Shown: positions 36,861 through 38,495 of the stretch, piece after piece
How the letters are laid out: every line of letters begins with the position of its first letter
Position numbering within the stretch: the stretch's first letter is position 1
Origin: Candidatus Thorarchaeota archaeon
GTDB taxonomy: Archaea > Asgardarchaeota > Thorarchaeia > Thorarchaeales > Thorarchaeaceae
Assembly (NCBI GenBank): GCA_048882045.1
Contig: JBHLRZ010000013.1
Span: 21,365 to 85,364 of the forward strand
DNA length: 64,000 bases
Direction: 5' to 3'
Notes under the pieces: generated by a model
Told to the model about the DNA's origin: nothing
Databases searched by the model: none
Seen by the model: the letters and a program-made list of their open reading frames with translations, nothing else
Position numbers and translations under genes: made by a program

Positions 36861-37238
36861 ATGCCAGACCTTCCATTGCGTTACTACTGTTATGTCTGTG
36901 GACACATCAATGACCTGATGCTGGAAGTACCACTTGCTCCTGAACTAGAAAGGAGTGAAATCAAGTGTGAGAACTGTGGTGATGTCACCCATCTACTTGT
37001 GACTGCATGTCCTGAATGCCAGCAAGCTTTCAGATACTTCCTTTCGGATCTTGATTTTCCCAATGAGATTATTCAGCTTTCTGCAGCATATGTGAAACTG
37101 ATTGAGGGAATCAGGGATAGTATAGCCAACCATATCGACGAGTTCAATGTTCCTCTTCCTGGAAAATGGTCAGTCAAACTAAACTGCGAGTGTGGGAAGG
37201 AATACCAGGCTGAGATTCCTCTGCCCAAAATCTCCTAG
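36861..37238 (+). CDS. Multi-Zn-ribbon hypothetical protein
   Basis: CYVC, CENC, CPEC and CEC; GAGGT RBS. Confidence 0.75.
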   Translation: MPDLPLRYYCYVCGHINDLMLEVPLAPELERSEIKCENCGDVTHLLVTACPECQQAFRYFLSDLDFPNEIIQLSAAYVKLIEGIRDSIANHIDEFNVPLPGKWSVKLNCECGKEYQAEIPLPKIS

Positions 37239-37721: not shown

Positions 37722-38171
37722 CTACCCAATTACGACCTCAGAGTTTAGATAAACCGGGCACTTCATGGAGTTGGCTACGAGACAATATCTGTGTGCCCTC
37801 TCTGCAGCCTTCTCCATTTTCTTCCTGTCTTTCTCGTTTGTCACAATGATCTTTGAATTCATGGTAATTTGATTGAACTCCCAACCGTACTCAGCCATAG
37901 CAAGAGTACCTGTTGCACTGATATGAAAATCCTTGAACTCCGCGTGGTAACGCTTTGCCACTCCAGACAATGAGACTCCATAGCAAGCCACAGCTGATGC
38001 AACAAACAGATCCTCTGGTGAGAGGAGTTCTTTTGGACTCTCAGGCCAAAAGTCAGGAGGCGTGGCAATGTGGAATTCTTCTTTTCCTTCAATGTCAATC
38101 GTAACAATCTTCTCTTTGACCCATTTACTAGTCAGTGTGTATACATGTTCTTCTTCTGAATTATCGGACAT
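37722..38171 (-). CDS. OsmC/Ohr family protein, tandem paralog
   Basis: TPPDF, SPEDLFVASAVAC and AHRYCLVANS. Start 38171 or 38195. Confidence 0.88.
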   Translation of the reverse strand: MSDNSEEEHVYTLTSKWVKEKIVTIDIEGKEEFHIATPPDFWPESPKELLSPEDLFVASAVACYGVSLSGVAKRYHAEFKDFHISATGTLAMAEYGWEFNQITMNSKIIVTNEKDRKKMEKAAERAHRYCLVANSMKCPVYLNSEVVIG

Positions 38172-38221
38172 GGAAACTTCCCCATCCCTACTCATTGAAT
38201 AGCATTGCGCTAGGGCAAATC

Positions 38222-38440
38222 AATGAAGTGTAACACTCTACACTTCCAAGGGTGAGGCTTATTAGGAACTTCTTCATTAGAAAACTTGGTGGTCAGGCGG
38301 CTGATGAGGCAATATTTTCTGTAACATGCCCTCATAAGCCTGAGGAGACTTCCTCCTGGCTGAGGAAAACTCCCCCCCTCCTACCATTTGCCTTTCGGCT
38401 CTGGCCACCAACCTATCGGGGGGTGTTACAGAAAGTAACT
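38222..38440 (-). ncRNA. Candidate structured RNA (multi-stem with pseudoknot and alternative pairings) in the osmC leader region
   Basis: 11-bp 38316-38326/38424-38434; C7/G6; GCC-GAAA-GGC on the minus strand; 38286-38296/38401-38411; 38255-38262/38334-38341; hairpin 38225-38246. Strand not certain. Confidence 0.55.
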
Positions 38441-38460: not shown

Positions 38461-38495
38461 AAAAAGGAGAAAGTGGTGCTGCTGGATGCAGCACC
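38461..38495 (-). terminator. Hairpin plus pyrimidine tract ending the vWA gene
   Basis: Minus strand reads ggtgctgc-atcca-gcagcacc then actttctccttttt, 8 nt after the stop codon. Confidence 0.7.

Follow-up and report, generated by a model that had tools for sequence, protein, structure and literature searches.

A multicopy gene of Thorarchaeia for a predicted small non-coding RNA with a near-invariant C-rich loop

A small RNA gene on the plus strand

The window (the whole 64,000-nucleotide stretch of Candidatus Thorarchaeota DNA that was analysed) contains, between a vWA-domain gene and two osmC-like genes, what comparative sequence evidence indicates is a real and uncatalogued gene for a standalone small non-coding RNA, located on the plus strand behind its own promoter, from which we infer that it is transcribed (Table 1). 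The best explanation, held tentatively and at a little below an even chance, is a trans-acting, sibling-type small RNA, multicopy and Thorarchaeia-wide, that pairs with Shine-Dalgarno sites. The original prediction had placed a structured RNA on the minus strand of a 219-nt region, either as an aptamer with an expression platform 5' of osmC or, as a fallback, as a standalone non-coding RNA or ribozyme. The standalone RNA is the reading that holds, given the RNA's own promoter and a covarying stem on the plus strand.

The region is indeed structured: on either strand the 219 nt give a more stable fold than their shuffles do (z -2.3 for minus and -2.8 for plus), and the 128-nt plus-strand unit has a fold z of -4.1, with 0 of 200 shuffles as good. 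Only the part from about 38251 to 38414 is conserved in the alignment of relatives. A covariance model matches this copy at G000:C13:59651-59779 (E 9e-20, the copy itself being in the training set), and the RNA is ~127 nt long here versus ~97 nt in most relatives.

The covariation in relatives that was proposed as a check is found on the plus strand and is lacking on the minus strand. Of the 20 pairs in the plus-strand consensus, 7 have changes on both sides, and 92.8% of the cells are paired; 32 cells are changed on both sides, compared with 11.4 in shuffles that ignore phylogeny (0/500), and the stem covariation far exceeds that of slid controls. None of the 14 pairs of the minus-strand consensus covaries. 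The remark that some G-U wobbles favour the plus strand also proved correct, as reading on that strand gives 104 G-U versus 14 A-C cells. Covariation is cleanest in one of the three subtypes described below, type C, where 12/14 terminal-stem pairs have changes on both sides and 88 cells are double-changed, against 21 in shuffles (which again ignore phylogeny). An ACC tail follows the terminal stem in most copies.

On the plus strand, each copy begins with a TATA-like word; a spacer that is free in sequence and nearly fixed in length follows, and then GGUGG. The RNA is predicted to start 29 nt after the TATA box in this copy. In type A, 47/48 copies have the start of the TATA-like word 26-31 nt ahead of the stem, and in type B 34/38 have it 28-33 nt ahead; in type C, whose copies have an added 5' leader, the word is shifted to about -52 to -81. 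This shift along with the leader is the best evidence for a promoter and for a standalone RNA. Boxes like that of the small RNA are also present at tRNA genes of the same genome. We also rejected the possibility that the TATA word belongs to the RNA and pairs with its loop, since in type C the word shifts along with the leader, and it precedes protein-coding genes as well.

A promoter-like TATTCA box occurs 29-31 nt upstream of the osmC ATG in 19/21 loci in which such a box was matched. With its box ~30 nt before the ATG, the osmC mRNA is predicted to be leaderless and thus to exclude the RNA element, so a riboswitch is unsupported. The osmC and small RNA genes are predicted to lie back to back and to be transcribed in opposite directions.

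Table 1. Features of the locus, in window positions unless a contig or locus is named
Feature	Position	Strand	Remarks
Predicted small non-coding RNA, type A copy	38288..38414	plus	covariance-model match, fold z; ends inferred from promoter and stem
TATA box CTTATTAG of the small RNA gene	38258..38265	plus	purine-rich BRE-like stretch before it
Terminal (panhandle) stem, 5' strand	38288..38312	plus	consensus pairing
Terminal stem, 3' strand	38388..38409	plus	then short A(A)CC tail; pyrimidine-rich tract in most relatives
Motif I, CAUGCCCUCA	38325..38334	plus	predicted mostly unpaired; in type C, apical loop of inner hairpin
Inserted hairpin between motifs I and II (P3 of the original prediction)	38338..38367	plus	lineage-specific
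Motif II, AACUCCCCCCCUCCUACC	38368..38385	plus	single-stranded (predicted)
Separate BRE/TATA-like box of the osmC genes	38194..38211	minus	neighbour, outside the RNA
First osmC-like gene	37722..38171	minus	PF02566, E 4e-15; divergent from the RNA; predicted leaderless
Second osmC-like gene	37681-37244	minus	
vWA-domain gene	39397-38504	minus	flanks the interval on one side
Type C example context	G000:C14 copy; Tes-like gene L037:1878-3032	minus	

Fate of the minus-strand model

The minus-strand pairings can be drawn on the sequence but fail as a conserved model, since P1, the C6 run, P3 and the final hairpin are not conserved. The 11-mer of P1 does occur at 38316-38326 (+) and 38424-38434 (-), with 0.09 matches expected by chance, but its outer arm is missing in 25/25 relatives compared (best 6-8 of 11). 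The C6/G7 helix called P2 is private to this genome; the C6 run is absent in relatives, where the longest run is 1-2. The P1 arm and the C6 run together make up 38418..38434 (+), six G followed by TGTTACAGAAA, a genome-specific inverted copy of part of the loop. What was proposed as a GNRA loop belongs to the 3' strand of the stem and changes together with its 5' partner. The P3 hairpin is present here as a lineage-specific insertion, found at this site in 2/27 aligned copies (unrelated hairpins occupy it in two more genomes). In the supposed UUGGUGG/CCACCAA pseudoknot, the terminal stem of the plus-strand RNA had been read on the wrong strand; the 'invader' of P3, AUAAGCCU, is the reverse complement of the small RNA's BRE/TATA region. 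The final hairpin before osmC is variable among relatives and, as drawn, private to this genome. No conserved pseudoknot or multi-helix junction was found in any of three alignments.

This copy has two folds at -49.0 kcal/mol, one of which hides motif I. The equal energies give the idea of a switch a local basis, but it needs substitutions and an insertion that are absent from most relatives.

Several features of the surrounding DNA were also recorded. The stretch at 38418-38434 (+), just past the RNA and in this genome only, is an exact inverted copy of 11 loop nucleotides plus six G and probably arose by inverted duplication on the spot; in a read-through RNA it could pair with the loop, but the predicted fold pairs it locally. 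The palindrome at 38225-38246 lies between the two back-to-back promoters and could be an operator (it is unconserved in relatives). The vWA terminator noted nearby corresponds to a terminator-like site, a hairpin and T tract past the vWA stop codon at 38475-38495 (-). A small Cys-rich zinc-ribbon-like gene at 36861-37238 (+) is convergent on the osmC pair, and where osmC is absent type A copies lie directly downstream of a homologue of this gene.

Family, subtypes and distribution

Under strict filters, the covariance model matched 86/87 genomes of the order, with 1-8 matches each, and none in a phylum sample of about 123 other Asgard genomes. A second model, built from the most distant subtype, matched 40/40 genomes of the class and 0/124 genomes outside it, also under strict filters; as the genomes outside the class are samples, these results read 'not found' rather than 'absent'. 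A BLAST-level search found the element in 26/36 genomes of the family. Genomes carry 1-9 copies, and this one has four; a fifth motif I match in it (C9:51831) lies inside a coding frame and lacks motif II, and was set aside as chance. Motif pattern matches in named genomes are almost all from Candidatus Thorarchaeota. Strict-pattern matches were found in 0 viral contigs, and four relaxed matches there fail the model.

The 174 distinct copies fall into three subtypes (A 49, B 41, C 84). The proposed check on whether homologues stay 5' of osmC comes out positive for most of type A, where a divergent osmC is next to 41/49 copies, but not for the 125 type B and C copies, which have other neighbours. 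Gene contexts are mixed in type B. Type C copies are often downstream of a radical SAM gene like that for tetraether lipid synthase (Tes; 45 loci), and often before a PhzF-family gene. Paralogues adjoin unrelated genes in all orientations, with no fixed neighbour, and there are three long-lived paralogous loci that are kept in place across genera.

Genome G015 has four extra copies (L094, L095, L096 and L098) that share exactly one unit, which starts immediately ahead of the TATA box and ends with the ACC tail; their flanks are unrelated, and one copy lies directly against an IS607-like transposase fragment. Promoter and RNA together thus seem to form a mobile cassette. Tandem RNA gene pairs ~330-400 nt apart occur at L107 / L197, L317. 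A typical type C copy is present in a record titled Hermodarchaeota (L134), which is possibly misnamed or a mixed bin.

Loop motifs

Two C-rich motifs make up the near-invariant interior of the RNA. Motif I, CAUGCCCUCA, is identical in 171/174 distinct copies, and motif II, AACUCCCCCCUCCUAC, is matched in 166/174; the copies were collected by their motifs, and these counts therefore lean high. BLAST-derived and model-derived alignments show the same invariance of both motifs. The median unpaired probability of motif I is 0.77-0.87, and that of motif II is 0.89-0.97. Near-universal presence in Thorarchaeia genomes, in several copies and with ~30 invariant bases predicted to be unpaired, points to strong selection.

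Motif II contains CCUCCUA, which is identical to the 16S rRNA 3' end (anti-Shine-Dalgarno), as read from the 16S ends of relatives; the 3' end in relatives is GAUCACCUCCU and terminates in CACCUCCU. CAU immediately precedes motif II in 44 of the 49 copies of type A and in 25 of the 41 of type B; this anti-AUG is present in 0/84 type C copies. Where CAU precedes motif II, the loop complements GGAGG at -13/-14 together with AUG, a spacing within this genome's peak. In the assembly itself (93% complete) no 16S or 23S rRNA gene was found, and the 5S gene is on C2. The 16S matches of 2.3-2.4 kb at G035:C2:589938-592348 and G014:C73:13812-16104 suggest large insertions or introns.

Proposed function and alternative explanations

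For the favoured trans-acting small RNA, we propose that the terminal stem would protect the RNA ends and present the loop, and that the loop would pair with the G-rich Shine-Dalgarno regions of many mRNAs (CCUCCU with AGGAGG, CCCUCA with UGAGGG). Such pairing may dampen translation initiation, as with bacterial sibling small RNAs that have C-rich seeds, and different copies could bring different promoters to one shared output. Free stems, an invariant C-rich loop and several copies are the pattern of the cuckoo and LhrC families, and thus favour a sibling-type RNA. The genome does use Shine-Dalgarno sites, with a GGAGG peak at -12 to -16. Pairing with motif II is found for 8.1% at -20..0 versus 1.6% in coding sequence (five times), a value equalled by 9/40 shuffles of motif II; the preference of motif I is equalled by 6/40 shuffles. 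The Shine-Dalgarno preference of the motifs is mostly composition. Long pairing with the best-scoring targets, a FAD-binding oxidase gene and an hdrB-like gene, is lost in their orthologues (16 and 30 loci). That type C has no anti-AUG also speaks against the pairing role.

Alternatively, the RNA may bind protein, as a decoy or ribonucleoprotein scaffold, with the invariant loop recognised by a single conserved protein or complex. Such a partner might be an initiation factor or a C-rich-RNA-binding protein to which the loop looks like a copy of the 16S 3' end. We regard this as possible but on balance doubtful. Both motifs are near-invariant over 17 genera and three paralogous loci, and the positions ACAUG, AAC and UACC are as invariant as the remaining motif positions. 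Pairing with mRNA would not fix them, so their invariance fits a fixed protein partner better. Consistent with protein binding are also the conserved ACC tail past the stem, the tolerance of hairpin insertions between and inside the motif borders, and the lack of a conserved mRNA target or of any complement above shuffles in 16S, 23S, 5S, tRNAs, SRP and RNase P RNA. Overall, a fixed protein partner accounts for the invariance of the loop about as well as small RNA pairing does. Against it, there is no fixed neighbouring gene, a search of 87 genomes of the order gave no Ro60/TROVE, and the type C leaders point to base pairing. Complements of the two motifs are over-represented in these leaders (47% and 56% of cases at z<-1.64, using simple shuffles and related sequences that are not independent), so the loop can serve as a pairing surface; the enrichment also suggests that the leader is a built-in latch.

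A broader reading, which we think unlikely, is that of a class-wide housekeeping RNA of a kind undescribed in archaea. It would act as the RNA component of a ribonucleoprotein, or mimic the 16S rRNA 3' end as a decoy, and globally tune Shine-Dalgarno-led versus leaderless translation in this Asgard lineage, with some copies carrying an antisense leader as an on/off latch.

The remaining explanations are improbable. A selfish or DNA-level cassette with no RNA function (a MITE-like repeat or single-strand DNA hairpin) would explain the up to 8-9 matches per genome and the four copies in one genome that consist exactly of promoter and RNA, with unrelated flanks and one by an IS607-like fragment. 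It does not explain the G-U-biased covariation or the three loci that stay in place across genera, the invariant interior with free stems is the reverse of a transposon end, and no family member was found among the viral pattern matches; we consider it improbable. Very little probability attaches to a Cys-rich leader peptide on the minus strand (MRACYRK...) with a strong Shine-Dalgarno site, which would attenuate osmC or form a toxin-antitoxin pair with the plus-strand RNA as silencer. GGAGG, a spacer, ATG and MRACYR are indeed found on the minus strand in most type A copies, but the frame is anywhere from 3 to 203 codons long, synonymous changes are all but lacking, type C copies do not have this reading, and in this genome an insertion parts the Shine-Dalgarno site from the ATG.

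A self-cleaving ribozyme or a guide or template RNA is just as improbable: an invariant core of ~30 nt would be compatible with catalysis or templating, but no core of a described ribozyme class was matched, Rfam gave no ribozyme, C/D or H/ACA match, a conserved pseudoknot or multi-helix junction is lacking in three alignments, and the complementary word is not in excess in the genome (11 occurrences, 4 of which are the genes). Least probable, and largely refuted, is a minus-strand riboswitch or thermosensor in the osmC 5' leader, for even though the minus strand beats shuffles in folding and type A copies are mostly 5' of osmC, that strand has no covarying pair and the G-U bias favours the other one, the osmC box lies downstream of the element, P1, C6/G7 and the final hairpin are unconserved, no Rfam class matches, and the other two subtypes have other neighbours.

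Comparison with known systems

The statement that the RNA matches no known class was upheld: Rfam searches at gathering and E-value thresholds returned nothing relevant. A weak RsmY match corresponds to the end of the vWA gene and its terminator. None of the papers searched describes a family of conserved regulatory small RNAs from Asgard archaea, and the main text of a bioRxiv atlas of intergenic clusters mentions neither Thorarchaeota nor Asgard. The family is a ready Rfam entry and a class marker; in the genomes searched it was not found outside the class. It offers a well-defined starting point for work on post-transcriptional control in close relatives of eukaryotes. The RNA is short and easily made, so its partner and mechanism are testable in vitro without culture.

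Several housekeeping RNAs were considered and rejected. A divergent RNase P RNA or SRP RNA was set aside because this genome already has both elsewhere: the RNase P RNA gene is on C1 (E 1e-49), and C11 carries an SRP-like RNA whose match (E 3e-18) is under the cut-off. For a box C/D or H/ACA guide, the alignments have no conserved boxes, the tail is ACC, and no rRNA or tRNA complement exceeds shuffles.

Y RNAs are ~100 nt long, with paired 5' and 3' ends, a pyrimidine-rich loop, several paralogues and Ro60 as partner. The Thorarchaeia RNA resembles them in its paired ends around a pyrimidine-rich loop, its length of ~100 nt and its several paralogues, but has no Rfam Y RNA match, and Ro60 (TROVE) was found in 0/87 genomes of the order (control genomes were positive in 2/14). 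A search for major vault protein gave no match in this genome, nor in any control genome.

The Asgard SECIS element lies in the 3' region of selenoprotein genes and has an AUGA_GA core (PMC11227280). It was rejected, as the small RNA has its own promoter and its flanking genes vary in identity and orientation.

The LhrC sibling RNAs of Listeria monocytogenes (LhrC1-5, Rli22 and Rli33-1) are multicopy (PMC8079631). Shared with them are multiple copies of ~105-120 nt, a pair of C-rich motifs, of which one sits in a hairpin loop and the other is single-stranded, and the possibility of Shine-Dalgarno pairing. LhrC, however, folds into two distinct stem-loops that bear UCCC motifs, plus a terminator hairpin, whereas the Thorarchaeia RNA has a terminal stem of 14-25 bp; it also has longer invariant motifs, is archaeal, lacks an Rfam match, and its targets are predicted only. 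The cuckoo family of Alphaproteobacteria (CcsR/RSs0680, SmelA075, SmelA099) consists of 2-4 adjacent hairpins, each with CCUCCUCCC (PMC4615179). Several copies per genome, freely covarying stems and an invariant anti-Shine-Dalgarno-like loop are common to both; the Thorarchaeia RNA differs in being a single panhandle whose two motifs are unlike each other, and it lacks CCUCCUCCC.

RsaE/RoxS and other UCCC-motif small RNAs of Bacillales have unpaired C-rich seeds and are mostly single copy. The Thorarchaeia RNA is likewise a conserved small RNA with unpaired C-rich seeds, but these RNAs are bacterial, mostly single copy and of another fold, and there is no sequence match. Our best guess from these comparisons is that the Thorarchaeia RNA would work like the known C-rich sibling small RNAs, yet fails membership of each.
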